Source of the DNA: Thermoproteota archaeon
GTDB lineage: Archaea; Korarchaeota; JAOZGF01; JAOZFZ01
Direction: 5' to 3'
Assembly: GCA_027492035.1 (NCBI GenBank)
Contig: JAOZFT010000004.1
Span: forward strand, 416,001-480,000
Length of the DNA: 64,000 bases
Part shown: positions 7,295 to 38,929 of the stretch, piece by piece
How positions within the stretch are numbered: the stretch's first letter is position 1
Layout: the number at the start of each line of letters is the position of its first letter
Position numbers and translations under genes: made by a program
Notes under the pieces: model-generated
Told to the model about the DNA's origin: nothing
The model's input: the letters and a program-made list of their open reading frames with translations, nothing else
Database searches by the model: none

Positions 7295-7532
7295 TTATTC
7301 ACCTTCGTTTTCTTCTCTTTTTTCGTAGGCTAATATTTCATCTGCCAAGTCTAAATGTGTCAAAAACATCCTTCTGCAGCAGTATCTTTTTATTCCTAAT
7401 TCATCTAAGGCTTCTTTTTTACTTTTCCCTTGCTTAAGTAATTTAAGGTAATCCTCCCAAAGATGACCTATAAGTTTTCCACAGGTGAAGCACCTTCCGC
7501 GTCATTCAACATGACTTTACGGGTATATGCAT
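7295..7532 (-). CDS. rpoN: RNA polymerase subunit N (Rpo10), two exons: 7532-7517 and 7494-7295; 71 aa after splicing
   Basis: Spliced product [21 protein letters not shown]...LDELGIKRYCCRRMFLTH...; expected position between rps9 and rps2; absent from the ORF track because the intron carries a stop. Confidence 0.93.
7495..7516 (-). other. 22-nt BHB intron in rpoN mRNA
   Basis: CCGU-[AAA]-GUCAU-guuga-AUGAC-GCGG-[AAG]; cutting after bulge nt 2 joins GTA A|GG TGC (Val-Arg-Cys). Confidence 0.88.
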
Positions 7533-7548
7533 CCCTAAACCCCCTTTT

Positions 7549-7971
7549 TTATCTTTTCGATTTCTGGAACCTCGCTCTTGCTCCTCTCCCTCCGAATTTC
7601 TTGCTTTCTTTCAATCTTGCATCTTCAACTAACATAAACCTGTCATATTCTAAGAATTTATTTTTTAAGGTTTCTCTCGTTTTTTCATCCTTAATCCATT
7701 TAAGAAGAGCTCTTGAAATAGCTACTTGAACTGCTTCAGCTTGTCCCATGTAACCTCCCCCCTTGGCTTTAGCCTTTATGTCTATATTCTTTGTAATTTC
7801 CTCCCCAGCTAATAAAAGGGGCTCCATTATTTTCCATTTCGCAATTTCAGGTTGAAATATCTCAAGTGGGATATTGTTTATTTTTACCTTCCCTTTCCCT
7901 TTTTTAATCGTAACAGAAGCTCTTGCTGTCTTTCTTTTTGCACTTGCGAAAACAAATTCTCCGTTTACCAT
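7549..7971 (-). CDS. rps9: 30S ribosomal protein S9 (uS9)
   Basis: KRKTARA, GGGYMGQAEA, YDRFMLVED, KKFGGRGARARFQKS. Confidence 0.97.
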   Translation of the reverse strand: MVNGEFVFASAKRKTARASVTIKKGKGKVKINNIPLEIFQPEIAKWKIMEPLLLAGEEITKNIDIKAKAKGGGYMGQAEAVQVAISRALLKWIKDEKTRETLKNKFLEYDRFMLVEDARLKESKKFGGRGARARFQKSKR

Positions 7972-7974
7972 TCC

Positions 7975-8430
7975 TTAACTCATCCTCCAATCGCTCGTTA
8001 GCTCCGCTATCTCCCTTAAAGTTATCGTAGAACTTCTTACACTTAATTTTGAACTGGTTAATGAATCCACTTTCTCTTTTTTAACATTTTCAAGTTCTGC
8101 AGGTACCCCTAAAAAAACTCTTAACATTTTGTATGCCTGTCTCCCCTTCCCCTTTTTGTAAGGAAGCATTCCTCTAACTGTTCTCTTAAACAACCTATCT
8201 GGTCTTGCATAGTAAAATGGCCCTTTTCGAGGGTTAGCGAGGTTTTTTCTCCATTTCCTCTTTAAATACTCCCTTAAAACCTTTTGCCTCTTTCCACTCA
8301 CTACTATTTTTTCTGCATTAACTACAGCCACTTTTTTACCGTTTAACAACTTTTTTGCTACATATGAAGCCAATCTGCCCAGTATTGTTTGCTCTCCATC
8401 CAGTACAATGTCGAAATTCACTTTGTTCAC
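7975..8430 (-). CDS. rpl13: 50S ribosomal protein L13 (uL13)
   Basis: ILGRLASYVAKKLL, VVNAEKIVVSG, RTVRGMLPYK. Confidence 0.97.
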   Translation of the reverse strand: MNKVNFDIVLDGEQTILGRLASYVAKKLLNGKKVAVVNAEKIVVSGKRQKVLREYLKRKWRKNLANPRKGPFYYARPDRLFKRTVRGMLPYKKGKGRQAYKMLRVFLGVPAELENVKKEKVDSLTSSKLSVRSSTITLREIAELTSDWRMS

Positions 8431-8789
8431 CTTAAAATTTTAATATTTGATCCCTTAGGGTTTAATTCGGCAATTTCTGTCAGTTTTAAAGCTCTTCCTT
8501 TTGCCTCCACTATTTTCTCAACTGCCCTTTTTGAGAAGGAGTAAGCTGCTACATTCACTTCATGTTTCAGGGTTCCCCCACCAAGTACCTTACCAGGCAC
8601 TATCACATATTCTCCTTTACCAGTTAATCTATCTATTTTACTTAAGTTCACCACTATCCTCTTTCTTTTGCTCCTTGAAAGGAGTTCAGCTACTCTTCTC
8701 CAGATCTTAGCCTTTTCTTCCCTTGATTTCATTTTAAGGAATGTTATCAACTCTTTCAGTTCTTCACTGGCAGGTTCTTTCTTTACCAA
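8427..8789 (-). CDS. rpl18e: 50S ribosomal protein L18e (eL18)
   Basis: KIWRRVAELL, VNLSKI, VPGKVLGGG, AAYSFS, NPKGSNIKIL. Confidence 0.96.
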   Translation of the reverse strand: MVKKEPASEELKELITFLKMKSREEKAKIWRRVAELLSRSKRKRIVVNLSKIDRLTGKGEYVIVPGKVLGGGTLKHEVNVAAYSFSKRAVEKIVEAKGRALKLTEIAELNPKGSNIKILR

Positions 8790-8831
8790 TTTCAGTTCCT
8801 CCTCTAAGTTTTTAGGGGGAAGAGGCTAGGC

Positions 8832-8894
8832 GAGGCTCAGTTTTCCAGGTTCTCATCATTTTTTTCAAGCTCTGCGTAGGTACTTCACAGCCTC
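8832..8894 (-). ncRNA. Putative C/D-box guide sRNA
   Basis: GAGGC stem, degenerate C (GTGAAGT), guide, D' TTGA, C' ATGATGA, guide GAACCTGGAAAA, D CTGA, GCCTC stem. Confidence 0.6.
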
Positions 8895-8925
8895 CCCTTA
8901 CAATGAAGATTTTATAAAACCTTAC

Positions 8926-10020
8926 CTATTTTTCATTTATAAACCTATCCTTTAACTTTTTGAGAACCTGGGGTAATGTTGTGTATTCCATTTCGTGGGC
9001 GCTTAATCTGTGGGGCATAAAGGGGCCGTGTTTCCTTAAGTAGTCGCTGACAAAATTGGCCATATCTCTCGCGTTGTTAAAAGCTGGATCATCAAATAAA
9101 TCAGCCGGGCCTATTAGTAAACCATTTGAAACTTGGAAACCCAATGCAACTATTCGTGGGGGGCCGTCAAATCTAGTGCATTTGGCATCTTTTAGCCCCA
9201 CAGGCATTAAGGGACCTATATGGCTTCCTCGCATCCATCCAGCCACTAGATGGGGGAAACTGAAACCCTCCAGTATTTCCCCAATGGCTGGCAATCCATG
9301 CTGAGCCCTAACTATCGCTACTGGGTCATCTTTACCCACGTATTTCCCCGCTATCAAATTCACTTTATCTGTACTCACCGATGCAGCTACTGTTCCATCC
9401 TTCTTTGAAACCTCCTTTATAACATATTTACCTGTTGTTCCTATTAAAGCCAAAATGTCGTACATTTCCTCTGGACTGCTTAACTGAAGCATATCACCTG
9501 TGTAAACATCAGTTATTTTGAAATTGAAGCCCTCATGCATTTTTGGGTCTATAACCAAGCCTGCTGTACAGAAAGGGTCTGAAAAAATTCTGAAAAGAGG
9601 TAAATTGAAAGCTCCAGGTTCTGTTTTGTCAGCCATTAAAACTACGACAGGTTCTGATTTCCTCTCTTCAAATTCCAGCTCGGCTACACCTGGACCCATA
9701 CCTCTGACGTTACCTGAAAAGGCTTCTTTGAGAATATCTTGCCCAGCAGCATAAAGGTGCATCTCTTGAGCTTTTTGTTTACATTTATTAAATGCTTCCC
9801 AGGCTAGGCTGTGCACTTCACTGCTATTTTTTCCTTTTCTATGACTCATCACCAGCTCTAAGTCGTCTCCGCAATTAGTTACAAAAAAATCTTTTATTAT
9901 CCCCTCCTCTTTCCCCCTCTTTAAGTTCTCCTTAGCTGTGTCAAGCAGTGGCTTTGGCACTATGTGATGTCCTGCTAGTGACCCTACATCAGCCTTTATT
10001 ACCGAAATTGTAACCTTCAA
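8926..10020 (-). CDS. fbp: Fructose-1,6-bisphosphate aldolase/phosphatase (class V)
   Basis: ISVIKADVG, CGDDLEL, LYAAGQD, FSGNVRGMGPG, DKTEPGAFNLP, YVGKDDP, GWMRGSH, RFDGPP. Confidence 0.97.
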   Translation of the reverse strand: MKVTISVIKADVGSLAGHHIVPKPLLDTAKENLKRGKEEGIIKDFFVTNCGDDLELVMSHRKGKNSSEVHSLAWEAFNKCKQKAQEMHLYAAGQDILKEAFSGNVRGMGPGVAELEFEERKSEPVVVLMADKTEPGAFNLPLFRIFSDPFCTAGLVIDPKMHEGFNFKITDVYTGDMLQLSSPEEMYDILALIGTTGKYVIKEVSKKDGTVAASVSTDKVNLIAGKYVGKDDPVAIVRAQHGLPAIGEILEGFSFPHLVAGWMRGSHIGPLMPVGLKDAKCTRFDGPPRIVALGFQVSNGLLIGPADLFDDPAFNNARDMANFVSDYLRKHGPFMPHRLSAHEMEYTTLPQVLKKLKDRFINEK

Positions 10021-10076
10021 TTATTTCCCCTCGACCAAATGCTTAAAATTGTTTTCTTAAATTGGTAAAAGGGACA

Positions 10077-12593
10077 TTAGTTAAAAAAACTTTCTAAAGT
10101 TTTAGACCCTATTATTTCGTCGAAATCTAGGTTAAGGGCATCAAGTACTTGTTCAAAAGTTGTTTTTAATGTTTCAACATATTTATCAATGTCTATTTCG
10201 CTTTTCTTTGTGAGACTTAACGGTTTAACTCCTATTTTGCCTTTTGTTTTGATGAAATTTATTGTGTCTCCTGGTTCTATGTTTACTCCCTTCTTTTCAA
10301 GCATTCTTGCAGCTTTAACATGTTGAGGAGTTGTTTTAGTGTACCTGTTTAATGGCTTTGTCAAAGAAACTTTAAAGGAGAGATCCTCCAGGTTAAATGT
10401 TTTGTTTTTAAGTGCAAGATACTTTTCCTTAATTATTTTCTGTATTTCCTTCTTGGCTTCTTTAAATTCTTGTTCAGTTTTCACTTTCCCTAAAATCTCA
10501 ACCATTTCATAAAAAGCGGTCTTTATGAAGGGGGGAGTGTTCTTCTTTTTCCCTATAAGACCCTTTATATCCACTGTGCCGTCAAGATAAACCCCTATGT
10601 AATTCTTTTTCCTTTTCGATAAGGCAACATATCGATAAATCTTGTCTATATCCATATCTATGCTGAATTTCTCCTCAACCCATCTCATAAGTTCCTCTAT
10701 AACTTTTTTAGGTGGTTTTTCAAGAAAAACAGAATCTGTGTCACCATAAATTACTTTTATTCCCCTTCTTTGAGATTCCTTCATGACTTCTATGATCAAA
10801 TGTCTACCATAAGCTGTTATGCTTTCTGCCACAGGTGGACAGTAGTAGCTGAATGTTTCAGCACCTAAAACACCATAAGATGCGTTCAATATGACCTTAA
10901 GAGCTTGCTGTATGACTTTATTTTTTTCTCTTTCTTTTACAGGTAAATCCTTGGCTTTGGATTTTGGTTTGAACCACCTCACTCTTACATCCCTTAAAGA
11001 TCCCATCAAAACAGAAATTAAGCCTCTTCGCCTCGTACAAACCCAATGAGGTGTGTCAGGAACTTTGTTTCCTCTACACCCCGGATCGTTACAGTTAATT
11101 GTTTCGTAACTTAAGTTTCTACTTTTTATTAAGCTTGGATAAAGACTGGCGAAATCTAGCACTGTGACGTTGAAATGAACTCCTTCAGCCGGTGGAATAA
11201 TCACAGCCCCCTTGTACTTTTTTCCCTGAATTACAGACTTTGTTTTTGCTTCTCCCTTCTTTTCAATAATGTCCTCAGAGTTTGGAATCAATAACCCCCT
11301 TTTTCGGTGTTCGTAGTTTAAAAGGTTTCTTATCCAAGCTGAAACTCCTGTCCTTGTCACATCTTCTAAACTTAATCTAGAAATTTTACTGATCAAAATG
11401 ATTAAGTTCATAACTAGGCCGTCATTGAAAGTTGTTAACTCCATTGTCAATTCGGAATCTCTAAGACAGTATTTGGCGAGTTGCTCCAAAGTCAACTGTG
11501 AAATCTCTTCTTCTAATTCTATTTTCCCTTTAGAGAGTAAAGCTGTTGACACTTCATCAAGAGTTGCGTTTCTGTATCTTTCAGAGAAAGCGTAAACTTG
11601 GATTGACCTGTTATGAAAGAATTTATAAAGGTCTAAATGAAGCCCAGGCTCTATTTTAAACGAATCTTTTCCTTCCTTTAAAGGAATCTCCTTCCGGTTT
11701 ATTCCAAGTTTTTCAGCTCTATGAGCCAAGTAGGGTAAATCAAAGTTGTCTCCGTTAAAAGTAACCAGTAAAGGAATATTTTTTATTTCATTAAATATCT
11801 CCCTGATCATTTCTTGTTCAGAATTGAAAAAGTAAACCTTCGCCCTCTCTTTCAAACTTTCCAAATTCCCCTCTTTTACAGAAACTCTCTTCAGTAGAAA
11901 TATTTTCCGTTCTGACTTATTACTGACTAGAGTTGCAGCTATTACTGGGTAATTAGCTTCTTTTGCGTAAGGTATCCTCCCAACTTTTGGAGAGAAAACT
12001 TCTATGTCTAAAGCTGTTCTGGTGATATTAGGTATGGTAGCTGATAACAACTTAAACCAGTTAGCTGTTTCTTTATAAACTTCTGGGTCGAAAAGGAGCT
12101 CCTCCCTGAATAAGTTTTTCCATTTTTCATTTTTCCCGTTTTCTTTTTCAACCCTTTTTAAGGAGCCGCTTTCACTGATGAGATATTCCTCCCCAATTAT
12201 AAGCTTATGATCATAAATATAATTGTTCCTGTATTTTATTTTATCCTCCCATAAGTGAGCGCTTAACTTTTTTCTTTCGAAAACTTCTCTTATGCTGTTT
12301 CTCCTTCCACTTATCCATAAAGGATCTTCAACCTCTATTTTTGTAAATTTCCTTTTCTTGTTTAGTAATGTATCGAAAAGAGTTACTTCTTTAAAGCTAA
12401 GAACAGCTTGTTGTATTTCTTTATCTAACACTTTCTGTACTTCTTCTTTGGTTAAATCCGTTAAACAATAAGGTCTATGACCGGTTGAATCAGCTACTTT
12501 CAAAATTATTTCTTTTTCAGGGTTATAGAATTTCATTATTGCCTTCTTTTCTTTTCCATCATAATTTACGCCAAGTAAAAAGCCTCTTTCCAT
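10077..12593 (-). CDS. polB: Family B DNA polymerase (PolB1 type)
   Basis: Exo DIE and FNGDNFDLPY; DFASLYPS; KVILNASYG; YGDTDS; N-terminus typical of PolB1. Confidence 0.96.
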   Translation of the reverse strand: MERGFLLGVNYDGKEKKAIMKFYNPEKEIILKVADSTGHRPYCLTDLTKEEVQKVLDKEIQQAVLSFKEVTLFDTLLNKKRKFTKIEVEDPLWISGRRNSIREVFERKKLSAHLWEDKIKYRNNYIYDHKLIIGEEYLISESGSLKRVEKENGKNEKWKNLFREELLFDPEVYKETANWFKLLSATIPNITRTALDIEVFSPKVGRIPYAKEANYPVIAATLVSNKSERKIFLLKRVSVKEGNLESLKERAKVYFFNSEQEMIREIFNEIKNIPLLVTFNGDNFDLPYLAHRAEKLGINRKEIPLKEGKDSFKIEPGLHLDLYKFFHNRSIQVYAFSERYRNATLDEVSTALLSKGKIELEEEISQLTLEQLAKYCLRDSELTMELTTFNDGLVMNLIILISKISRLSLEDVTRTGVSAWIRNLLNYEHRKRGLLIPNSEDIIEKKGEAKTKSVIQGKKYKGAVIIPPAEGVHFNVTVLDFASLYPSLIKSRNLSYETINCNDPGCRGNKVPDTPHWVCTRRRGLISVLMGSLRDVRVRWFKPKSKAKDLPVKEREKNKVIQQALKVILNASYGVLGAETFSYYCPPVAESITAYGRHLIIEVMKESQRRGIKVIYGDTDSVFLEKPPKKVIEELMRWVEEKFSIDMDIDKIYRYVALSKRKKNYIGVYLDGTVDIKGLIGKKKNTPPFIKTAFYEMVEILGKVKTEQEFKEAKKEIQKIIKEKYLALKNKTFNLEDLSFKVSLTKPLNRYTKTTPQHVKAARMLEKKGVNIEPGDTINFIKTKGKIGVKPLSLTKKSEIDIDKYVETLKTTFEQVLDALNLDFDEIIGSKTLESFFN

Positions 12594-12764
12594 TTATTTA
12601 CCACTATAAAGGTTTTTGATTCCCTCTTTTCTTAGAAAAAGAGGAAACTTAAAAATTTTGGTGATCTTTCTTGTCAGCCCTTCTTTCTATGATAAAAGGA
12701 AGAATTTTTTAAATCTATTTTTGTGTATGAAGAGGGTATAGAAGAAATGAAAAGCAATGAAGGG

Positions 12765-13043
12765 TTAATTTCTTATTTCAAGCCATTCTAAAGGTATATC
12801 CTGATATACTCCACTTCCTCTTATCCTTCTTCTAATGATTAAAGGCAGGACTTTCTTTTTCAATTCAAGTTTGGCGATTTCAACGGGGTCAATTAAATTA
12901 GGAGGCAGTTCAATTAAAATAGGTGCTCCTACTTCAATCTGTAAAGCTCTAGCAGAAATTATTGCTACTCTTTCATATTTAGTTAAAAAGGGAGGTCCTA
13001 TTTTCACCTTCCCGCTTAAGTTGGAAGAGTTTTTTTTAGGCAA
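12765..13043 (-). CDS. rpoK: RNA polymerase subunit K (Rpo6)
   Basis: LTKYERVAIISARALQIEVGAP...IAKLEL...LPLIIRR. Confidence 0.95.
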   Translation of the reverse strand: MPKKNSSNLSGKVKIGPPFLTKYERVAIISARALQIEVGAPILIELPPNLIDPVEIAKLELKKKVLPLIIRRRIRGSGVYQDIPLEWLEIRN

Positions 13044-13105
13044 AGATGATTAACCTCAAAAAATGAGGGAAGGTTTTTGTTTTTCACCTCTCAATAACTT
13101 ATCCT

Positions 13106-14767
13106 TTAATAAGGTGGAGCTCCCCCTGGATAACTTTGAGGTAACGGCTGTGCACCTGCTCCCTTCCCTTTCTCCATTTTACCTGCAGCTATTACATCGT
13201 CTATTCTCAATATCATTTCTGCAGCTTCAGTAGCTGAAGCAATGGCTTGTTTTTTGACTCTGGTGGGTTCAATTACTCCTTCCTTTATCATATCCTTTAT
13301 TTCTCCTGTATTTACTTCAAAACCTGTAGTGAGGTTACCTTGTTTATGTGCAGCTCTTAGCTCGGCTATTTTGTCTATTTGATCAAATCCCGCATTTGTA
13401 ATTAGAACCTTAGGTATTACTTCCACTACGTCCGCAAATGCTTTTACTGCAAATTGTTCCCTTCCACCAAGAGTTTCTGCATATTCCCTTAATTTCCTTG
13501 ACACCTCTATTTCTACTGCTCCCCCACCTGGCACAACTTTTCTGTCTTCCATCACATTTCTCACAACAGCTATCGCATCATGTATGCTTCTTTCAGCTTC
13601 CTCTACTACATGTTTTGCAGCTCCTCTGATAAGTATGGTTACGGCCTTCGGGTTTTTACAGTTTTCAACGAAGACCATTTTATCCTCTCCTACCTTCCTT
13701 TCTTCAACTAGCCCTGCATAGCCTAAATCTCCTTCTGAAAGTTCTTCTATATTGGTTATTATTCTTGCACCTGTTGCTTTAGCTAATTTTCCCATATCTG
13801 ATTTCTTAACCCTTCTCACTGCTAAAATATCTGCTTTTGCAAGGAAGTGTTGGGCTACTTCATCTATCCCTTTTTGGCAAAAGACAACGTTTGCCTTTGC
13901 TTCTTTAATTTTGTCCACCATTTCTCTCAACAACTCTACTTCTTGGTCGAGAAATGCTTTCATTTGTTCAGGGTTTGAAATTCTGATTTTTGCATCTATT
14001 TCTGTTTTCTCTATCTCTAACGGGTTCTGGATTAAAGCTATCCTTGCATTCTCCACTTTTTTTGGCATATCTGAATGGACAACTTCTTTATCAATAACCA
14101 TCCCCCTTATTAACTGCGTTTCAGCTATTGACTTACCTTCTTTCTTCTCAACTTTTATATTATCTATGTCAACTTTGACTTTTCCGTTCTGTTTTGTTTT
14201 TACTATGTCTGCTGCTTGCACTATTAGTTCAGCAAGTTCTTTTCTTGATCCTGCCACATCCTTTGAAGCCAAAGCCGTTTCAGCAACTTTCTTCAGGGTC
14301 TCCACATCTCCCTCTTTAACCTCTATTGCTAAACTGTCAATTATTTCAGCTGCTTTTCTAGCTGCCTTTTTGTATCCTTCAATTATCACTGTAGGATGTA
14401 TCTCTTGGTCGACTAATTCTTCAGCTACTTTTAAGAGTTCACCTGCTAACACCACCACACTTGTAGTGCCGTCTCCTGTTTCGTCATCCTGAGCTTTAGC
14501 CACTTCAACCATCATTTTAGCTGCAGGATGTTCAACATCCATTTCTTTCAGCATAGTTGCTCCGTCACTAGTTATTACAATGTCCCCCAGTGAATCCACC
14601 AGCATTTTATCCATCCCCATTGGGCCAAGTGAGGTTTTCAAGGATTCAGCTATGGTTTTAGCCACTTCTATGTTTATTCTTAAAGCACTTCTTCCAACTT
14701 CTCTAGTCGTTCCTTCCTTAAGAATTAAAATAGGCTGACCACTTGGCGTCTGAGCTGCAATAGCCAA
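13106..14767 (-). CDS. ths: Thermosome (group II chaperonin) subunit
   Basis: [36 protein letters not shown]. Confidence 0.97.
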
Positions 14768-15036
14768 TTAAATCACCTCAGAAAATGTGAAAGAAATTAT
14801 TTCATCAAACAACAAAAGTGAAGAGTTAAATGTGTTTATGAAGATGCTTCTTCAGGGAAATTATTTTCTGGAAAGAAACACCTTAAAAATTTGTCCCACA
14901 TTTATTCATATCTTTTTTAAAAATCCAATTTAAAAGTTTCGTTTTATAATGTTTCAGAAATACATTACTGGTTTATGTTTTTAAATTATTTGCCTCGAAA
15001 GAAATTGCTTTTTTTCAAAAATAAGTATCTGTTATT

Positions 15037-15768: not shown

Positions 15769-15860
15769 TTAAAAAAGAAACATTTTCAAGTACACTTTCC
15801 CTAAAAAACTCCTTGTTCTTTAAAAAAGAATGCTTTTTTTAAAAACTAGGAGTTAGGAAA

Positions 15861-17457: not shown

Positions 17458-17549
17458 CGCCCCGGGCGGGATTTGAACCCACGTCAATGGCTCGACAGGC
17501 CATTATGCTCTCCGTTTTCGGTTTTAAAGCCGGGCTACACCACCGGGGC
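17458..17549 (-). tRNA. tRNA-Asp(GUC) with ~16-nt D-arm intron (about 17508-17523)
   Basis: GCCCCGG/CCGGGGC acceptor, ATGGC-CTGTCGA-GCCAT anticodon arm, T arm; oversize D arm with CTTT/GGAG helix. Confidence 0.88.
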
Positions 17550-17714
17550 ATTTAAGTAAGTAATGTGCTGTTTTTTAAAATATTCCCTTTTACCCCCTTA
17601 ATAAATATTTCTCTTCTCTTTCTTATCATACTTTAATTTGTTTTTAGTTTTGTTTTTTAATGGGTTTAAGGAGTGAATATTATTTTTTACTTTTGTTGGT
17701 TAAAATGTTTTACT

Positions 17715-25404: not shown

Positions 25405-26758
25405 CTACTTTCTAATTTTTATGTATTGGTAGGCTTCAGCAGCTGTCTCGAAACAGTAATGTACCTCTTGGAAGCTTTTTTTGAATTCTTTTACATCATT
25501 TAATACTTTCTCAGGTTTCTCTTTGTCTATTATTACTCTTTTCATAAAGTCTGCAATTTCCTCCATGTCTTGTTCCTTCATCCCTAGCCTTGTAACTTCA
25601 CTTGTACCTAGTCTTATTCCGCCTGGATGCTCGTAATGTCTCCCTTCCCGAATATCCCAGGGTAAAAGGTTTCTATTAACTATTATGTTTGCCTTTTCCA
25701 GTTCTTTTTCAATTGCTGCACCATCTCCATACTCCGAAATATCTACGAGTAATGTATGACTCTCAGTGAACCCTTTGTCAGCTGCTACCACCTTGAAGCC
25801 TCTCTCATAAAGTGATTCCCCAAGTTTTTTTGCGTTCCTAATTATTTGTTTTGCGTATTCTTTTCCAAACTTTAGGTGCTCAGTTAAAGCTATAGATAAA
25901 GCTGCTACGCAGTTTAAGTGGTGGTTACTCACTAGCCCAGGGAAAGTAGCTCTTTTAATTTCCTCGAAACACTCCTTTTTCCCTACAACCATCCCATGTT
26001 GAGGACCTGGTAAAGTCTTGTGGGTTGACATTGAAATCACGGCTGCTCCTTCCCGCAGAGGGTCCTGAAACAAACCTGCCCCTATTAAGCCCGCTACATG
26101 AGCTGCATCATAAGCCATAACTGAACCTACTTCTTGAGCTGTTTCGACGAACTCTTTCACTGGATGTGGAAACAAGAATACACTCCCTCCAAACATTAAC
26201 AGTTTAGGTTTCTCCCTCTTTATCTTTTTTATGGATTTATCTACGTCAATGTTCATTTCTTCTTCATTGAATTCGAAGTATTCCACGTTTAATCCTTTCA
26301 CAGCACCTGCTGTGCCTCCTATGAATGAACCAGTTTTTGATTTTAAAGGACCAGCTGAAATATGTCCCCCCTTACTTATAGGTAAGGCGAAAATTTTGTC
26401 TCCTGGTTCGGTGAAGGCCGTATAGACAACTAAATTGGCCACAACACCAGAAATAGGTCTTACGTCAGCAAATTCTGACCGGAAAAGTTCTTTAGCTAAC
26501 TCAATAGTTATTTCTTCCACTTCATCTATATATTTGCAGCCTGCATAAACTCTCTCTCCGGGCCAACCCTGCAGAAGCCCTTAGTTTTCATCTAAGGACT
26601 TACTCTGCGTATCTGTGCCCGAAGTCAGAAACTAATGCCTCTCTGACAGCTGGACTCGTCACATTTTCACTGGCAATTAAAGGGATGGCATCTATAAACC
26701 ATTCATGATGTTTCTTCAACAAATCGAAAATTCTTCTGTAACTTTCTTCAGGTTCCAA
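25405..26758 (-). CDS. glyA: Serine hydroxymethyltransferase, two exons: 26758-26603 and 26568-25405; 439 aa after splicing
   Basis: Exon 1 LIASENVTSPAVREALVSDFGHRYAE joins exon 2 GWPGERVYAGCKYIDEVE...YDAAH...STHKTLPGPQ; SD GGTGATGG before TTG start. Confidence 0.93.
26569..26602 (-). other. 34-nt BHB intron in glyA mRNA
   Basis: GCAG-[AGU]-AAGUCCUUAG-augaaaa-CUAAGGGCUU-CUGC-[AGG]; cutting after bulge nt 2 joins GAG|GGT (Glu-Gly); intron carries in-frame TAA and TGA. Confidence 0.9.
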
Positions 26759-26895: not shown

Positions 26896-28032
26896 TTGGA
26901 AAATATGTCAGAGGTTAAAAAAATGGCGGAAGCCGAAGTTACTTTAAGCGGTGAACTAAAAGGGAGAAAGGTATTCTTAGAAGGTCCAAAAAAGTCCATA
27001 CAAGAGTACATAAATAAAGGCTTTGGTTATTGGGAGGCTGACTCTGAAACTTTAGAGCTTCACCTCATAGAAGCCCTTTATCTCCTAGAAAAAAATAAGA
27101 TAAATCTTTATAAAGGGGAAAAACAGTTGGAAAGGAGCGATTTACTTAATGAATTGAAGGAGAACGAAAATGATTTCTTAAGATACCTTGTTTACAAAGA
27201 TTTAAGGGATAGAGGGAGGATAGTAAAGATTGGACCCTTAGATTTCCTTAGGCTCTTTGTTGGCCAGTATAAACCTGAGGATTCTGTTTCAAGATATTTT
27301 ATTTTCGCTTTATCTGAAGAAAAGCCTATGCTGTTTCAAACACTTACGAAGTTAATAAACGAAAGCTCGAAACTTAGGAAAGAACTACTGTTAGCCATAG
27401 TCAACGATGAAGGAATAATCTCTTACTATGTTACACGGAAAATAGATATTTTATCAATTGATGTTCCACATTTAGATTTTGAAAATGTTGAAGCTTACCT
27501 GTACGGTGACCGTTTAGTCATTTGGAACATAGAAAAAGCCAGAGAACTGTATGAGAAAGGTTTTTTCGGGCATCCGATAGGGATAAGGAAACCTAAATCC
27601 TTTGAGTTTGAACAACCATCTCTCCTGTCTCTCTACGAAGCCCATTACTTGCTGAAAAAGAAAAAAATAAAAGTCATCGACCCAAAAAACGGTAAAGAAC
27701 TGGATCTGGAATCTTTCGTAGAGAAAGCTAAAAGTTTAAGGGAAAGGTTTGACATACGTTGTCAAGTATATGACTACTGGCGTGACAAGGGCTATGTGGT
27801 GAAAAGTGGTTCACTGTACGGTGTAGACTTTATAATCTATTTAAGAGGCCCTGGAATGGATGAACATTCAAAGTACATGAACCATGTTTATTCAGAAAGT
27901 TCAAGTTTCATACCCTTAGAAATTATTAGGGCGGGAAGAGTAGCTACTACTGTAAGGAAAAAACTAATCTTATCTTTATTAAACAAAAAGGGGGAGATAA
28001 ACTTTTACAAGTTTTCTTGGCATAAACCTTAA
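26896..28032 (+). CDS. endA: tRNA-splicing endonuclease, two fused units (structural plus catalytic)
   Basis: Unit 1 LHLIEALYL/YLVYKDLRDRG; unit 2 with catalytic Y (SGSLYG), H (DEHS), K (VRKK) and GHPIGIRKPK loop. Confidence 0.95.
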   Translation: MENMSEVKKMAEAEVTLSGELKGRKVFLEGPKKSIQEYINKGFGYWEADSETLELHLIEALYLLEKNKINLYKGEKQLERSDLLNELKENENDFLRYLVYKDLRDRGRIVKIGPLDFLRLFVGQYKPEDSVSRYFIFALSEEKPMLFQTLTKLINESSKLRKELLLAIVNDEGIISYYVTRKIDILSIDVPHLDFENVEAYLYGDRLVIWNIEKARELYEKGFFGHPIGIRKPKSFEFEQPSLLSLYEAHYLLKKKKIKVIDPKNGKELDLESFVEKAKSLRERFDIRCQVYDYWRDKGYVVKSGSLYGVDFIIYLRGPGMDEHSKYMNHVYSESSSFIPLEIIRAGRVATTVRKKLILSLLNKKGEINFYKFSWHKP

Positions 28033-28052
28033 AGAACGATTTCGGTGAGCAA

Positions 28053-29429: not shown

Positions 29430-29437
29430 AATCTATC

Positions 29438-29500
29438 ACCTCAGTAGCCGACGATCATCACTTTTCAAAACTTTATTAAGGGGCATAATTTTTCAGGGGA
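29438..29500 (-). ncRNA. Possible C/D-box sRNA or K-turn in the TIP49 leader
   Basis: TTGA-AAA-GTGATGA-TCGTCGGCTA-CTGA, running into the SD GGTGAT; no clear upstream C box. Confidence 0.35.
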
Positions 29501-29894
29501 AGATAAAAAGGTTTCTCAAAACTTAAACTTGGAGAAGCTGCTTTTAAGAGAAAAATTATCTACTTAAATTAAAAAATGATCAACGAAAAATTTAAATATT
29601 CTCTTTTGCTTCAGAAAGAACATCTTCTTTTGAGGGATGAAGAGTGAAAGGCGGTCGTCAAACAAATAATTAAAGCTTCGTGCGATAACTCTCTACCTTT
29701 ACTTGATAAATATAAGCAACTACAACTTATTTCTTCTTTCCTTCCCTATTCCCCTATTTCTTACTCCTTTAAACACTCTTTTATTTTGTATACCTATGTC
29801 TTCTTTTCATTTCTCCTTTCTAAGTTTCTTTATTTTCTTCAAACTTCACTCACATCCCAAACTACTTGAGTCATTTAGAAAGGTGCTTCATATA

Positions 29895-31802: not shown

Positions 31803-31816
31803 CTTTCTTAAAGGAA

Positions 31817-31911
31817 TGGACCGGGTGGGATTTGAACCCACGACCTCCGCGAATCTGCTTTAAAGATTTAAATCGCCAACGCGGCGTTCATTCCAACTGA
31901 ACTACCGGCCC
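31817..31911 (-). tRNA. tRNA-Ala(GGC) with 21-nt intron at 37/38 (31853-31873)
   Basis: GGGCCGG/CCGGTCC acceptor with G3-U70, CCGCG-TTGGCG|intron|T-CGCGG; relaxed BHB (TTGG/GCAG). Confidence 0.9.
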
Positions 31912-31940
31912 TTCCACTATTCATATGCCCATTGTTACCT

Positions 31941-32129
31941 CTATTTCACTCTTACTTTATTAAATTTTTTGTTTTGCCAGTTGTATCTCCTAATTCTTTT
32001 TGATTTACCGAAACCGCATGCTGCACAGTACTTTCCCCTTACGTTGTAAGAGTGTCTTCCGCATCTTCTGCACCTTATGTGTGTTTTTCCTCTGGATCTT
32101 TTGCCCATTGACGGTGTTCCCTTACCCAT
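31941..32129 (-). CDS. rpl37e: 50S ribosomal protein L37e
   Basis: KGTPSMGKR...[13 protein letters not shown]...CAACGFG. Confidence 0.97.
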
Positions 32130-32373
32130 ATTTCTTCACTTCCGCTGCAGGTGAAACTATAACTACTGTATCCCCCCTGACAATGATTCTCCCTAACTTC
32201 CTGGTTTTCTCCTCCATTATTTCATCTGATTCACTTAAAACAAGGTTCATGTGTGAATCGAAACTCTCTAACACTCCCCTTATTTCGGAGCCGTTTCTCA
32301 ATCTGATAAACACTACTCTCCCAACTGCTTTCGAAACATAATCTAAGGCTGTTTCTGTCTCGGTTTTCTCCAA
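32122..32373 (-). CDS. Sm-like archaeal protein (SmAP/Lsm)
   Basis: [27 protein letters not shown]; upstream of rpl37e as usual. Confidence 0.95.
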
Positions 32374-32739
32374 TACTTCTCCCCTATCACTTTTCCATTT
32401 AAAACTTATAAAATTTGCGTTATTTTTTTAATTTAAGAAGGGCAGTTTTACTTTCCAATTTACTGCAATTAAAAATTTTTCTCCTTCAAACCCTTTGAAG
32501 GAGGCTGCGTGTTACTTTTAAAAATTTCTTTTTAAAAAGAAACCTTTTTTCTTTCTTGGAAAGTTTATCCCTCAAAATTTAAATAGGTTATCTGGAAAAA
32601 GTGGTTACTTTTTAAAAGTTAATTCTTCTATTTTAAAAGCAAGAGTTTATGGAAATCTTTAACTTAAAAAACTTTATGTGCATGAAGAAAATGGAAGGGT
32701 GAACGCCCTTTCCTTTTTTTGGTGGAAAGGTGAGGATTT

Positions 32740-33129
32740 TTGTCTTTTTTTAAAAAATTATTTGGGAGAAGAGAAAGTGAAGAAGAGGAAAAACCAAGTG
32801 AACTTTCCAGTTTAATGTTAGACACTGAACAAGTTTCAGACAGTGAAATATCTCTTCCAGAAATCCCTGTTGAAGGTGAAGAAGTAATCTATATTAAACC
32901 TTATCGTTTAAGGTCTTTAGAAGACGTTGACACCGTCATCAAAGAAGTTATGGAGGAAAACAATATAGTGATACTTGATGTGACAACTTTGTCAAGGGAC
33001 AGAGAAACTATAAGAAGAGTGATTGAGAGGTTAAGGGGGGCAGTGGCAACTAGAGGTGGAGACTTAGGCCGTATACCCAGCGAAAGATTGATTATAACAC
33101 CTAAATTCGTTAAAATTTGGAAAAAGTGA
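32740..33129 (+). CDS. sepF: Cell division protein SepF
   Basis: N-terminal amphipathic MSFFKKLFG; NIVILDV...GGDLGRI...LIITP..VKI. Confidence 0.85.
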   Translation: MSFFKKLFGRRESEEEEKPSELSSLMLDTEQVSDSEISLPEIPVEGEEVIYIKPYRLRSLEDVDTVIKEVMEENNIVILDVTTLSRDRETIRRVIERLRGAVATRGGDLGRIPSERLIITPKFVKIWKK

Positions 33130-33168
33130 TAGTGAGGAGAGTTTCTTTCTTAGGTTTCCTCTTTTTCC

Positions 33169-35094
33169 TTAACACAACCTAACTCCTTCCAAATTAGTTG
33201 GTACTGTGGTTTCAATTTTTCTCATGGACCTTATGGCATGGGCTAACTCTTGAGATTTAGACTTCTCCCCATGCACTATTATTACTCTTGAAGGTTTAGG
33301 TTGTATTTTACCGGCATAAGATAAAAGCTGCATCCAGTCTGAATGTCCTGAAAAGCCTTCCACAGTGTAAACATCCATTTCTATTCTTATTATTTCTCCT
33401 CGTCCGTCGTTTGTCATGTAAACATTTCCTCCTTTACCTTGTCTCTGCACTTCCCTCCCTAATGTTCCATTTACTTGGTAACTGACAAAAATTATGCTGT
33501 TACGCTGGTCTGAAGCCATGTTTTTAAAGTATTCAACGGAAGGCCCTCCCGTGAGCATGCCTGAAGTAGCCAATATAATTGCTGAACCTTGCTGTAAAAT
33601 ATCTAATCTGGCCTCCCTACTCGAAATAGGTGTAAACAGTTCCGAAGTGAATGGATTCATTGATCTGTGAAGTATTTTATTCCTTAATGACTCCGACAAA
33701 AAGGAGGGATAAGTTGTATGAATGGCGTTTGCTTCAGCTATCATTCCGTCAACATAGACAGGTGCCTCAATCAATTTTTTCCTGTTGAAGTTTTTTTCAA
33801 GAATTAGAAGGATTTCTTGAGCTCTTCCTACACCTAGAACAGGTATCAAAACTGTTCCTTCCCTCCTCAAGGTTTTGTTAATGTATTCGATGAGTAATGC
33901 TTCAGATTTCTCCCTGGGGGGAAGAATATTTTTCACGGACCCGTAGGTTGATTCCATAATTAATGTTTCCAATCTTGGGAAACGGTATTCACTTCTTTCT
34001 AACAGGAGTGTCCTTTCAAACTTGAAGTCTCCAGTGTAAACGATATTATGCAGTCCCTCCCCAATATGGATATGGGTTATAGCTGAACCTAAAACATGTC
34101 CTGCATTGTAAAAAGTAATTTTCACTTCTGGTGAAATGTTAGTAACTGTTTCATATTCTAAGGGTATTGTGTGCAGAAGCTCCTCTTCTATGTCTTTAAA
34201 GGTGTAAATTAAAGGCCTTCCTTCTTTTCTGGCAACTTCTATATAATCCAGTTGTAGAAGCGCCATTAAATCTCTAGTTGGTTCTGTACAATAAACTGGT
34301 CCTCTGTAACCATACTTGAAAAGTAAAGGAACTGCTCCGCAATGGTCTAAATGTGCATGTGACACAACCACTGCATCTAACTCATCTATATCCAGCTCCG
34401 GTGCCCCTAAATAAGGAAGAAAATCCCTTTTTGAACCTAAGTTTATGCCACAGTCAAGTAAGATATTGCTTTCCTGCGTTTGAAGCAGGAAGCAGCTTCT
34501 ACCCACCTCTTTTGACCCGCCTAAACTTATCATCCTAACCCAGCTGTTCTTAAACACAGGTATCCTATGGATTCTACCTCCAGCCTTAGTGTAGAAACTT
34601 AGTCTTTGAGCAGAGTTGCCATAAACTATGTGCCTAACTGCGTGAATAATGCTTGATTTCACAATTTTTGATTCAACTGGTTTCCTTATTACTTTAGGTG
34701 TCCATAATGTCCTTTCTTTTATTTTTTGTAAGTTTTCTCCTTTTTGTCCAATGACAAGTCCAGGTTTTCCAGCTTCAATTATTACTTCCCCGAAAACAGA
34801 GTCGAAGTAGTACCTTTCGATATTAGCTTCTTTCTGGACAATTTTCTCTATTTCTCCTTTAGCTTTTTTAGGATCAAGCAGAAGGCTTCTCTCAAGTCTG
34901 ATGACTACTCTCTCCTTTAAAACCTTAGCTATTTCAGCAATGTAGTTGTCTGATTCTAAAAAGAAGGAGATATTGTCTGTATAAATCACGATGTAAGGGC
35001 CTTCATACCTTACTGAATTTATTTTAACAAAGTTTCCTGTTAAATCATAAATGACCCTACTTATTTTCTGCTGCAGCCCCTCTTCCTCCATCAT
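33169..35094 (-). CDS. beta-CASP ribonuclease aCPSF1 / FttA
   Basis: KH domains, EVGRSC, SHAHLDH, AGHVLGS, MESTYG, TSGMLTGG, GFSGHSD; adjacent to psmB. Confidence 0.95.
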   Translation of the reverse strand: MMEEEGLQQKISRVIYDLTGNFVKINSVRYEGPYIVIYTDNISFFLESDNYIAEIAKVLKERVVIRLERSLLLDPKKAKGEIEKIVQKEANIERYYFDSVFGEVIIEAGKPGLVIGQKGENLQKIKERTLWTPKVIRKPVESKIVKSSIIHAVRHIVYGNSAQRLSFYTKAGGRIHRIPVFKNSWVRMISLGGSKEVGRSCFLLQTQESNILLDCGINLGSKRDFLPYLGAPELDIDELDAVVVSHAHLDHCGAVPLLFKYGYRGPVYCTEPTRDLMALLQLDYIEVARKEGRPLIYTFKDIEEELLHTIPLEYETVTNISPEVKITFYNAGHVLGSAITHIHIGEGLHNIVYTGDFKFERTLLLERSEYRFPRLETLIMESTYGSVKNILPPREKSEALLIEYINKTLRREGTVLIPVLGVGRAQEILLILEKNFNRKKLIEAPVYVDGMIAEANAIHTTYPSFLSESLRNKILHRSMNPFTSELFTPISSREARLDILQQGSAIILATSGMLTGGPSVEYFKNMASDQRNSIIFVSYQVNGTLGREVQRQGKGGNVYMTNDGRGEIIRIEMDVYTVEGFSGHSDWMQLLSYAGKIQPKPSRVIIVHGEKSKSQELAHAIRSMRKIETTVPTNLEGVRLC

Positions 35095-35131
35095 GTCCCC
35101 TTTTTCCTTGAAAATTTTTAAGTGTAAATTT

Positions 35132-35800
35132 TCATATGTTGTCAAGAATCTTCTTCTTTTCTTCTTGAGTTAGTAAATGAACCCCCTTATTTGTTATTAC
35201 TGCTACGTCTATGCCGTCTCCTGTAGCACTGTCTCGGGAGATGGCTGACGATAAAGCACTGACAGCTAATTTTTCAGCTTCTTCTATAGTCAAATCTTTA
35301 CTGTACCTGCTCTCCAGAACTCCTATAGCTATAGGAGATCCTGAACCTGTAACTGTGTAGTCTTCGGAAGTTATTGAACCAAAAAATTCCACGTTGTAAA
35401 GGTGAGGTCCTTCTTCATCCACTCCCCCAACTAAGAACTGTGTTAGGAAAATGTTTGGTCTTGCATTAAATAATATGTTACCTAATAATGTAGCAAGTAT
35501 CCTGATTTTTATTTCTTCATTTTTCTCTAATCCATAAATTTTAGATACTGATTTAATATATCGTGTAAGTACTTGTGCATCAGCCACTAAACCAGCAATT
35601 GTTGCAGCTGATTTATCTGTCACTTTAACTATTTTATTTGCGTTTTTGTGGATTATCAGGTTCTCTGCTGTAGCTCTTTTGTCAGCAACTAACAACACGA
35701 AGTTTTTACCCTTCAAACCTATAGTGGTGGTTCCCTTAACCTTTCTTAAGAAATTATCCACGTTTTTCTTCACAAATAAGTTCTGCAACTGATTCACCAT
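35132..35800 (-). CDS. psmB: Proteasome beta subunit
   Basis: KG|TTTIG propeptide site, ADKRAT, AGLVADAQ, GSGS, RDSATGDG. Confidence 0.95.
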   Translation of the reverse strand: MVNQLQNLFVKKNVDNFLRKVKGTTTIGLKGKNFVLLVADKRATAENLIIHKNANKIVKVTDKSAATIAGLVADAQVLTRYIKSVSKIYGLEKNEEIKIRILATLLGNILFNARPNIFLTQFLVGGVDEEGPHLYNVEFFGSITSEDYTVTGSGSPIAIGVLESRYSKDLTIEEAEKLAVSALSSAISRDSATGDGIDVAVITNKGVHLLTQEEKKKILDNI

Positions 35801-36036
35801 TTTATTTAAAGAAATGGGACAGAACACGTTGGTAAAGGAAGTGGAAGCATTAACTTATTCATGGGAGGAGGAAGTGATTCTTGGAAAGAGGAAAGAACAA
35901 AAGTTTTTTATTTTATTAAGAAGTTCGTTTCACGAATTAACATAGAAAGATGGTATCAATTATTCTTAAATCTTTCCTTTTTTAGGAAGTATTTTTATGG
36001 AAACTTTATTTTCCCCTTTTCAAAGATGAGTGTAAC

Positions 36037-36486
36037 ATGACCGTTTACACTTTAATAGATGAAGGTTTAGCTAAGAAAGGATTTTCTTTTATCTTTAACG
36101 GGGGCACTAAAATATGTGAAACCTGTGGGTTAAAGTCTGTTTGTTTAAACAATTTAGAGAAGCAGCGGAGGTTTGTGGTTGTTTCGGTTGAAGATAAAAG
36201 CTTCCTTTGTCCATTAACAGGTAAAAAACAAAAACTTGTCCAAGTTGACTTTGAACCGGTTGAGGCTGCTGTAAACATGCAGAATATTTTTACAAATGTT
36301 CCTTTCAATTACCAAGGAATTAACTGTGAATTCGTTAACTGCGAAAACTATCTTTACTGTAATTCACCATACTTGAGAAATGGTGAAGTTTGTATTATTT
36401 TGGAAACAATAAAAGAAGTCCAGCGGTGCAGAAAGAATTACAAATTAACCCTTTGCAAAGTTTTGCCCAGGAAATATATGGAATAA
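36037..36486 (+). CDS. UPF0179 family protein
   Basis: TLIDEGLAKKG...CETC...C..NLEKQR Cys-rich pattern. Confidence 0.8.
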   Translation: MTVYTLIDEGLAKKGFSFIFNGGTKICETCGLKSVCLNNLEKQRRFVVVSVEDKSFLCPLTGKKQKLVQVDFEPVEAAVNMQNIFTNVPFNYQGINCEFVNCENYLYCNSPYLRNGEVCIILETIKEVQRCRKNYKLTLCKVLPRKYME

Positions 36487-36497
36487 GGTTTAGTTTC

Positions 36498-37286
36498 TTA
36501 TTTCTTCCCCTCTTTTTCTCTCCCTTCCCTCTTTTCACCTAATTTAAAAACTTCTATTATTTTTGCTTTCCTGTATTTAGGTGTGTATTTTTTCACATAG
36601 TTAATGAATTGCAATTTTTTAAGCAGTAAGTCTTCAGACAATAAAATGTTTTCCGGTAACTCCACTTCCACTAACTCATTGTTCAAAGAAATTTTCTTTG
36701 GGGGTACACCAAAAACTTCCTTAAAAAGTGCTTTAATTTTTTCGTTAGGACTCCTTATAATCTCCTTTATTTTCACTTTATAGGTGACTTCATGGCCTGC
36801 TTGAGGGTGGTTAAAATCAACAATCACCCTCCCCGCATTTACAGCTTTAATTGTTCCTACCGCCCCTTCCAGTTGCACTTTCATTCCAGGTTTTGGGTTA
36901 ATGTTTCTTTTCGTAAACCTTCTTAGAATATATGTTTTAACTAGGTTAGGGTCACGTTCTCCAAAAGCTTCTGAAGGCTTTAAAGTAATTGTTGTTTCTT
37001 CCCCTTCTTTCATCCCCACAAGTTTCTTTTCAAGTTTATCTAGTAACCATTTAGAACCTACAATGTCAAGTCTAGGCCCATATTTAACATGTTCATCAAA
37101 AATTTTGTTTTCTTCAGCTACTCTTCTACTGGTTGTGTCAAAAACTGACCCGTCTTCGATTCTGGCAGTATATTCCACCCGAATAAAATCTCCGAAATCA
37201 ACTGTTTCCTCTTTACTCCTAACTATTCTTGCTTCTTTAACGCCACTCTTCACTGCAGACTTGCTCTCCTTAACTGTTTTAGACAT
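36498..37286 (-). CDS. Long-type FKBP peptidyl-prolyl isomerase (SlyD-like)
   Basis: GDFIRVEYT, VFDTT, PSEAFGERD, VDFNHPQAG. Confidence 0.93.
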   Translation of the reverse strand: MSKTVKESKSAVKSGVKEARIVRSKEETVDFGDFIRVEYTARIEDGSVFDTTSRRVAEENKIFDEHVKYGPRLDIVGSKWLLDKLEKKLVGMKEGEETTITLKPSEAFGERDPNLVKTYILRRFTKRNINPKPGMKVQLEGAVGTIKAVNAGRVIVDFNHPQAGHEVTYKVKIKEIIRSPNEKIKALFKEVFGVPPKKISLNNELVEVELPENILLSEDLLLKKLQFINYVKKYTPKYRKAKIIEVFKLGEKREGREKEGKK

Positions 37287-37477
37287 CGCAAAACCCTCTA
37301 AACCCTTGAAGAATTCCTCAACGAATTTTATCCCTTTTTAAATGATTCTGTTTAGGTCCTAAAAATTTAGATGAAGTCTCTTTTCCTCTAGAAAATCTGT
37401 GAAGGAATTTTTCTTTTAAATCATTACGTTTTCTCACAGACTTATTTTTTAGAAAGGTTCTCTAAGGAAAATCATAT

Positions 37478-38929
37478 TTAACCTTTCACAACCCCTACAG
37501 GTTTCATCCTGACTACTAACAGAGAAACTCCTGCTTTATGCATGGATAAAGTAACTTGATCGACATTTTTATAGCTTCCAGGTGCCTCTTCTGCAGCTAC
37601 AGCGAAAGATGCAGGTTTTACATAGATCCCTCTGCTCTGGAGTTCACTTACTACCTGCCTACCTGAATACCTCCTCTTCGCTGCTGCTCTGCTTAAAGTC
37701 CTCCCGCTTCCATGACATGTTGAACCGAATGTTTCCTCCATTGCTTTCTTTGTTCCAATTAAAACATAAGATGCAGTGCCCATTGAACCGGGAATTAATA
37801 CAGGTTGTCCAATTTCTCTATATTCTATAGGTATTTCTTTCCTCCCTGGCCCGAAAGCACGTGTAGCTCCTTTTCTATGCACATAAACCCTAATTTTTTC
37901 CCCATCCACTTCATGTTCTTCAAGTTTCGCGATGTTATGAGCAACATCATAAACTACCTTCATTCCAAGGTCTTCAGAGCTTGCGTTGAAGATTTTCTCA
38001 AAGGTTTCCCTTGTCCAATGTGAAATAAATTGTCGATTAGCGAAGGCATAATTTACTGCACATTTCATTGCTTTAATGTAATCCTCAGCCTCTCTCGACT
38101 TCACATATGCGCAGGCAAGCTGTTTATCCGGTAACTTAAAATCCAGTTTGTTTGAATAGCCAAGCATAACCTTTAAGTAATCTGTTGCTATTTGATGACC
38201 GAATCCCCTGCTTCCCGTGTGGAGCATGACAACAATTTGTCCAAGTTTTTGGAAACCAAGTTTCTCAGCTATTTCTTTATTGAAGATTTTGTCTACAACT
38301 TGAATTTCTAAGAAGTGATTACCTGACCCGAGGCTCCCCAATTGGGGGCAGCCTCTTTGTTTAGCTCTTGAGCTAACCTTAGCGGGGTCAGCTCCTTCCA
38401 TCTTTCCGTTTTCTTCAATATATCTTTCATCACTCTCTAAACCGTAACCATGCTCAATAGCCCATTGGGCACCTTCAACACAGATTTCCTCTATCTCTCT
38501 AACCGTGAAACGGATTTTCCCTTTACTTCCCAAACCTGAAGGCACATTTTCAAACAATTTATCAATTAAATTTTTCAATTTAGGCTTCACATCCTCAAAA
38601 GTAAGAGAAGTAACCATTACCCTAACTCCGCAGTTAATATCGAAACCCACTCCTCCAGGGGAAATAATTCCCTCTTCAGTGTCAAAGGCAGCAACCCCGC
38701 CAATGGGAAAACCATAACCCCAATGTATGTCAGGTAAACCTATAGCATATTTCTGTATCCCAGGGAGCATGGTTATGTTAGCTAACTGATCTAAGGCTCC
38801 TTTCTCAACTCCTTGGAGCAAAGATTTTAAAGCAATAACTAAACCCTCTGTTTTCATGCCTTTCTTATAACTTTTAGGAAGTAACCATCGCACTTCATCT
38901 ATTTGTTTCAGGAAAGACTCAACTCCCAT
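37478..38929 (-). CDS. rtcB: RNA-splicing ligase RtcB
   Basis: PDIHWGYGFPIGGV, GFDINCG, GSGNHFLE, HTGSRG, DVAHN, VHRKGAT, STCHGSGR, EEAPGSYK. Confidence 0.97.
   Translation of the reverse strand: MGVESFLKQIDEVRWLLPKSYKKGMKTEGLVIALKSLLQGVEKGALDQLANITMLPGIQKYAIGLPDIHWGYGFPIGGVAAFDTEEGIISPGGVGFDINCGVRVMVTSLTFEDVKPKLKNLIDKLFENVPSGLGSKGKIRFTVREIEEICVEGAQWAIEHGYGLESDERYIEENGKMEGADPAKVSSRAKQRGCPQLGSLGSGNHFLEIQVVDKIFNKEIAEKLGFQKLGQIVVMLHTGSRGFGHQIATDYLKVMLGYSNKLDFKLPDKQLACAYVKSREAEDYIKAMKCAVNYAFANRQFISHWTRETFEKIFNASSEDLGMKVVYDVAHNIAKLEEHEVDGEKIRVYVHRKGATRAFGPGRKEIPIEYREIGQPVLIPGSMGTASYVLIGTKKAMEETFGSTCHGSGRTLSRAAAKRRYSGRQVVSELQSRGIYVKPASFAVAAEEAPGSYKNVDQVTLSMHKAGVSLLVVRMKPVGVVKG

Follow-up and report, generated by a model that had tools for sequence, protein, structure and literature searches.

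The RNA ligase RtcB joins the exons in archaeal tRNA-type splicing, a pathway whose introns are bounded by a motif called bulge-helix-bulge (BHB). Pre-mRNA introns in the gene cbf5 were reportedly the subject of work by Watanabe (2002) and Yoshinari (2006). Here we analyse a stretch of 64,000 nucleotides (nt), called the window below, from an uncultured Thermoproteota archaeon (assembly GCA_027492035.1, contig JAOZFT010000004.1, positions 416,001-480,000 of the forward strand, or G000:C9:416001-480000 in our numbering). Two of its conserved genes are broken by short inserts that fold as BHB motifs: rpoN, whose product Rpo10 is an essential RNA polymerase subunit, and glyA, which encodes serine hydroxymethyltransferase (SHMT). 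We conclude from comparative sequence evidence that these inserts are very probably introns of the cbf5 type, excised by the endonuclease EndA and followed by ligation of the exons.

The cbf5 introns of Desulfurococcales and Sulfolobales measure 16-44 nt. In the parts of that report consulted, splicing is described as confirmed for cbf5 only, with introns in other genes predicted in two references (Yokobori 2009, PMC2738675). Excerpts of a later paper (Schwarz 2020, PMC7714728) name cbf5 as the only other case and add an intron in the 5' untranslated region of Haloferax volcanii HVO_1309, an mRNA cut by EndA at a BHB. Within the literature searched, splicing has been demonstrated for no archaeal coding sequence other than cbf5. 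As portrayed in these excerpts, cbf5 introns resemble the inserts described here: they are short, free of open reading frames (ORFs), bounded by a BHB, placed inside a conserved motif, missed by gene callers and substrates of EndA. The present inserts differ in their hosts (rpoN, glyA, alba and rnhB), in numbering five per genome, in occupying several sites per gene, in reaching three per mRNA in other genomes, and in lying outside the Crenarchaeota orders; their splicing is predicted. Whereas the HVO_1309 intron lies in an untranslated region, these inserts break the coding frame, so their removal is obligatory.

Two other systems invite comparison. Archaeal tRNA introns, including those gained in Asgard archaea, share the motif, the enzymes, the repeated gains and the failure of annotators to see them (bioRxiv 10.64898/2026.10.13.758758), but the accessible text of that preprint covers tRNA genes only and contains neither 'mRNA' nor 'cbf5'. 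The XBP1 and HAC1 mRNAs also lose an intron by cutting and ligation with no spliceosome; there, according to the excerpted account, the nuclease is IRE1, the substrate carries two separate stem-loops and the process is regulated by stress, which makes the likeness one of analogy, not membership (PMC13149111). BHB introns in rpoN, glyA, alba or rnhB were not found in the titles and abstract openings searched, which leave subscription journals mostly uncovered; supplements of genome papers could list some. New here are an RNA polymerase subunit as host, five inserts per genome, several sites in one gene and three inserts in one mRNA.

Frame-breaking inserts in rpoN and glyA

The window's own genome (G000) is assembled into 42 contigs totalling 1.87 Mb and is 93% complete. 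G001 is a genome of the sister genus; other G and L labels denote compared genomes and loci. The two interrupted genes are laid out as follows, with the supporting observations in brackets.

7517..7532, minus strand: rpoN exon 1, 16 nt, starting with ATG (7532) (reading frame; Pfam match)
7495..7516, minus strand: rpoN BHB insert, 22 nt (fold; stops; same site in G001)
7295..7494, minus strand: rpoN exon 2, holding the zinc-binding cysteines (profile match; start-codon check)
26603..26758, minus strand: glyA exon 1, 52 codons; the TTG at 26758 is the best start candidate, not proven
26569..26602, minus strand: glyA BHB insert, 34 nt, within the conserved YAEG motif (fold; same site in 29 metagenome loci)
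25405..26568, minus strand: glyA exon 2, 387 codons (SHMT profile match from model position 51)

Both inserts form a strict BHB with two 3-nt bulges. The central helix of rpoN is CCGU/GCGG, with a 5-base-pair (bp) intron stem and a 3-bp exon stem; that of glyA is GCAG/CUGC, with a 10-bp intron stem and a 2-bp exon stem. The rpoN motif is present in the minimum-energy fold (-13.6 kcal/mol, z-score -2.4), and 4 of 200 shuffled sequences were equally stable; for glyA the z-score is -2.9 and 2 of 200 shuffles matched it. In each gene the frame is restored if both bulges are cut behind their second base. A spliced alignment to the sister-genus protein that had no knowledge of the motif placed the glyA jump on exactly these bases, and the spliced rpoN N-terminus aligns to an intact relative with no gap. 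The inserts and their geometry, a 4-bp helix between two 3-nt bulges, had been predicted from the sequence together with the cuts that restore frame and motif, and both predictions held. The exact junctions, 7517 to 7494 in rpoN and 26603 to 26568 in glyA, are directly testable.

Could either gene yield its product with the insert in place? The rpoN insert stops the exon-1 frame at insert position 9 and the exon-2 frame at position 13, and the glyA insert opens with an in-frame stop. In both genes the exon-1-frame stop precedes the last exon-2-frame stop, so a single frameshift cannot rescue them. The first start codon of exon 2 itself comes only at codon 41 in rpoN and at codon 16 in glyA. 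Because of this stop order and these late starts, neither one frameshift nor re-initiation yields the whole product. The match of PF01194 to the rpoN of G000 starts at model position 5. The original prediction had named intact second copies elsewhere in the genome as evidence that would overturn it; rpoN gave one match only, and no second, intact copy of it or of glyA was found in the 93% complete assembly. The warning that gene callers would be misled was also borne out: in public collections GlyA is called truncated, to 371 or 307 residues. Such calls distort marker sets and metabolic reconstructions.

Further inserts in the genome and in other archaea

How common are such inserts? A loose BHB pattern has 44,181 matches on both strands of G000; the fold alone is therefore not evidence, and its coincidence with a frame break is. 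We aligned 1062 reference proteins from G001, G002, G009 and G026 to G000 with an aligner that permits jumps and is blind to the BHB motif, covering 727 merged loci, 684 kb and 672 of the 1626 ORFs of at least 100 residues. This recovered glyA and two further breaks with a BHB, in alba and rnhB. Its sensitivity is incomplete, since it missed rpoN, which has a 5-codon exon, and cbf5, for which the references are also split. In a scan guided by alignment ends, 3 of 1472 BHB candidates restored homology (gain of at least 25), and each of four symmetric wrong-geometry controls restored none (1376-1681 candidates each). Two asymmetric controls gave one match each, re-finding the true glyA and alba inserts.

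Scanning with no recourse to homology does not discriminate when used alone (770 candidates of true geometry versus 725-796 of wrong geometries), and its first filter returned noise except for glyA. Run over all contigs, it ranked cbf5, rpoN, alba and glyA in the top six by folding out of 156 filtered candidates. The rnhB insert did not fold, and none of the new candidates was convincing. Among 167 in-frame inserts one folds as a BHB, that of alba. These scans may miss relaxed motifs, very short exons, genes with no sampled homolog and, where homology was not used, inserts longer than 80 nt. Other breaks, among them those at C9:581240, C9:510397 and C13:5759 and the frameshifts on C7, lack a BHB and were read as gene boundaries, reference fusions or alignment noise. 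For carB, G000 gave no full-length match.

In total G000 carries five BHB mRNA inserts of 16-36 nt, each of which breaks the frame or contains an in-frame stop. Three lie elsewhere on the window's contig, C9:

C9 232046, minus strand: alba insert, strict BHB, 36 nt with a stop
C9 314158, minus strand: rnhB insert, 16 nt, inside the catalytic motif
C9 310022, plus strand: cbf5, the known intron, strict BHB, 23 nt

The genome scan that the original prediction proposed, for breaks coinciding with BHB motifs, thus added alba, rnhB and cbf5. Its extrapolation from two introns in about 50 genes to the splicing of many mRNAs was too strong: the genome holds five, with 672 of 1626 ORFs scanned by homology.

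The glyA site of the window recurs in metagenomes. We searched them with a pattern consisting of the glyA flanks and a gap of 10-40 nt, with no pairing required. Of 55 matches, 29 were glyA by tblastn and 26 arose by chance. All 29 true loci have a BHB insert of 26-33 nt at the window's site, 27 with all four central pairs and a 5-11-bp stem and two with three of four pairs; the motif is absent from all 26 chance matches. With the window included, lengths at this site run from 26 to 34 nt and cover all three frames. Among 23 distinct inserts (the window's and 22 others), 99.1% of cells pair, and covariation is 0.764 against 0.250 in a shuffle that ignores relatedness (0 of 500 shuffles reached the observed value). 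When the pairing partners are slid, covariation falls to 0.09-0.20 (maximum 0.197). The intron base opposite the alanine wobble base covaries with it (CG 10, GC 9, AU 4).

Some glyA genes are interrupted more than once. In seven of the 29 metagenome loci (L295, L301, L306, L312, L313, L316 and L323) a single glyA is interrupted by three BHB inserts. They lie near residues 32, 53 and 276, and the third has a 9-bp stem with three of four central pairs. All three recur in the Odinarchaeota-labelled genome G041 (L332) and in its relatives G046 (L357) and G047 (L358). Three further relatives of G041, namely G069, G059 and G079 (L364, L365 and L366), use a fourth site 13 nt downstream of the window's, where inserts of 38-41 nt form four central pairs and an interrupted intron stem. 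Among the other 17 glyA loci of this set, 16 have no break, and L373 has two small compensating shifts and no BHB. G041 is not intron-dense: among 188 gene loci in 344 kb, convincing BHB inserts were found in glyA only, and five genomes checked for alba and rnhB have both genes intact. As a separate observation, nine SHMT calls of 361-384 residues (cluster P0107) start right behind YAEG, as though an insert close to the fourth site had truncated them.

For rpoN, profile matches were obtained in 40 of 41 genomes; 38 begin at model position 1, and only those of G000 and G001 are truncated. In G001 the gene is interrupted by a 22-nt insert at the identical base; the central helix is unchanged, and the intron stem differs by two compensatory changes. 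The motif could be scored in 107 of 110 rpoN loci and is intact in 106, the exception, L177, being the same G001 insert and so not independent. L222, one of the three loci outside the 107, proved to be interrupted. Around G041, five of 41 genomes have an rpoN truncated at model position 7. All five loci cut out (L222 and L388-L391; G041 and G046-G049) carry a BHB insert of 31-43 nt with a stem of 9-16 bp, at a second site that lies 3 nt downstream of the one used in the window.

The rnhB matches of G000 and G001 both begin at model position 8, and by eye G001 has at the same site a 23-nt insert of different sequence with three of four central pairs and a 6-bp stem. In alba, the matches of 36 other genomes begin at model position 2; in G001 an insert of 62 nt, read by eye, lies 8 nt further downstream than that of G000. 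Open frames of cbf5 are short in 16 of 39 matches; its BHB was seen in G001 and G002 and is the top fold in four of six further loci. A further gene, pcm, is intact in G000, G001 and G002 and has a BHB insert of 20-29 nt in G026 (L267, L091), G009 (L136) and G020 (L266), which represent three other families of the phylum.

Across archaea, predicted introns of this kind keep returning to a few conserved genes, where they sit within conserved motifs and use several nearby sites per gene (four in glyA, two in rpoN, two in alba). The trait is not special to this lineage: distant archaea have the same few hosts interrupted. Such multiple sites and a patchy presence suggest that the introns were gained independently more than once and persisted at places that tolerate nothing but their exact removal. 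A quick tree clusters the window's glyA with intron-less relatives, away from the 27 other rows that bear an intron. The intron site requires two changes on this tree, of which its starred branches force only one. The class of G000 comprises three genomes in the collection compared, too few for tracing the history of the introns within it.

Splicing and its rivals

Both enzymes that the proposed reaction would use are encoded in the window, as originally predicted.

26896..28032, plus strand: endA, 378 residues, two fused units, divergent from glyA (Pfam cut-off passed)
37478..38929, minus strand: rtcB, RNA ligase, full-length Pfam match (cut-off passed)

The C-terminal unit of EndA is closest to crenarchaeal catalytic subunits. 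It aligns with those of A. pernix and S. tokodaii, and the lysine that corresponds to A. pernix K44 is present in its loop (residue number counted from the alignment). Excerpts of PMC6379350 tie this lysine to broad specificity, and the G000 enzyme would appear to be of that type. The fused two-unit protein with a crenarchaeal-type catalytic unit is present in all five genomes of the phylum that were checked (L269-L276); G041 and four relatives have EndA as two separate subunit genes.

How would the exons be joined? In the pre-mRNA, four exon bases would pair with four intron bases near the 3' end of the intron, flanked by the two 3-nt bulges. Each bulge would be cut by EndA behind its second base; an RNA ligase (RtcB is the probable one) would join the exons, giving full-length Rpo10 and SHMT. 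This proposal starts from the observed sequence and geometry of the inserts, the restored frames, the conservation of site and pairing and the presence of both enzymes; for cleavage, ligation and the choice of ligase it borrows from the established tRNA and cbf5 pathway. The original reading of the inserts as targets of EndA and RtcB has gained strong comparative support, in that inserts of unrelated sequence occupy the same sites and keep the pairing in independent genomes.

Several observations weigh against it. The rnhB insert of G000 is weak, with a 2-bp stem, and no BHB appears in its partition function (probabilities 0.0 and 0.05). Stop positions in rnhB and cbf5 leave a single frameshift possible, exon 2 of alba has an ATG in frame two codons in, and in G001 the exon-2 frame of rpoN, read by eye, runs open through the insert. 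No frame-breaking glyA insert was found in the 29 loci examined from relatives of G000; in three of them, L016 (G024), L023 (G006) and L024 (G004), the glyA match ends with a TGA, probably the natural stop of a shorter protein. Finally, many of the 29 metagenome loci are close kin, and kinship inflates the shuffle test of covariation, yet the slid control keeps that kinship.

If the RNA were left uncut, ribosomes would have to cross the hairpin by frameshifting, bypass or readthrough. Every insert is a hairpin, often near a stop, the stops of rnhB and cbf5 would permit one frameshift, and frameshifting of split archaeal genes has been reported (excerpts of PMC3119797). We nevertheless consider such recoding highly improbable: no single rule fits lengths of 26-34 nt in all three frames at the glyA site, both frames are blocked in rpoN and glyA, and the covariation lies on the very exon-intron helix that defines the EndA cut. 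Still less credible is that the inserts are assembly errors or small hairpins in dead pseudogenes. A 42-contig, 93% complete assembly gives some room for this, but the same sites are reused in independent genomes, which largely refutes it, and the truncated glyA call is found on five contigs. Nor do the genes look dead, as glyA exon 2 is open for 387 codons with 78% identity to the sister genus and the single rpoN match is that of an essential gene. Self-splicing group I or II introns were rejected, the inserts being 22 and 34 nt long against a core of hundreds of nt and no such Rfam family occurring in the window; inteins are ruled out by the frame breaks or in-frame stops of all five inserts.

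Two further proposals are compatible with splicing and concern where the introns came from and what they do. In collaborative homing, described for phage introns (excerpts of PMC3984707), a free-standing endonuclease cuts the intron-less site, and the mini-intron is co-copied and breaks that site. The patchy distribution, the location in conserved motifs, the several nearby sites per gene and the place of the window's glyA in the quick tree among intron-less relatives, apart from the other intron-bearing rows, would all fit, and we hold this origin to be a serious candidate, if slightly less likely than not. No endonuclease-like neighbour stands beside the five G000 introns (N-termini read, not all library-scanned), none was among 19 Pfam-scanned neighbours of intron-bearing glyA loci, and none is called before rpoN in L222 or L177. 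PF14528 and PF00961 have no match in G000; these are two LAGLIDADG families only, and other nuclease families may lie elsewhere in the genome. If homing happened, the nuclease genes have since been lost.

As for function, the introns might be kept for regulation: through such a switch, RNA polymerase assembly, chromatin, RNA processing and the one-carbon supply would be coupled to EndA and RtcB activity. Four of the five host genes act on nucleic acids, the rpoN and rnhB introns are retained across two genera, and the Haloferax BHB intron in the 5' untranslated region affects expression (excerpts of PMC7714728). Against this, close relatives live without each intron, sites differ within a gene, glyA stands head-to-head with endA also in G001, where it is intron-less, and the rarity of exact deletion explains persistence equally well. 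A regulatory role is possible, if unsupported, and we think it unlikely.

Returning to splicing by EndA and a ligase, we consider it likely that the splicing of coding sequences by EndA and RtcB is a recurrent layer of archaeal gene expression hidden from annotation. It would be more than a peculiarity of cbf5, affect at least five essential mRNAs in single genomes, that of an RNA polymerase subunit among them, and extend to multi-intron mRNAs in Asgard-labelled archaea with no spliceosome. If this is true, core gene expression has EndA and RtcB as its gatekeepers, given five obligate mRNA introns in one genome, one of them in an RNA polymerase subunit, and three introns in one Asgard-labelled mRNA bear on how introns were tolerated before the spliceosome.

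Interrupted tRNA genes and neighbouring features

Five tRNA genes lie in the window, all with extra segments:

3964..4054, minus strand: anticodon TTT by eye, T-loop insert
4119..4237, minus strand: GTA, anticodon-loop insert
17458..17549, minus strand: GTC by eye, D-loop insert; missed by Rfam
31817..31911, minus strand: GGC, anticodon-loop insert with three of four central pairs by eye
42480..42606, plus strand: GCC by eye, anticodon-loop and T-loop inserts; missed by Rfam

Rfam finds three of the five, and ARAGORN with its intron mode off finds none. All five had been described as carrying BHB-type introns; the inserts are there, and by eye their junctions are partly relaxed forms of the motif. 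Relaxed ARAGORN settings gave 118 calls over the genome, mostly false, and were not used. By eye, most tRNA genes of G000 have inserts, several of them two or three (D-loop, anticodon, T-loop); examples on C9 of G000 are 139285-139409, 224642-224762, 256423-256539 and 334079-334211.

Elsewhere in the window, fbp is a single frame of 364 residues. At 39083-40337 on the plus strand, a Roadblock/LC7 protein with a long acidic tail is followed by a small GTPase; together they are an MglB/MglA-like pair.

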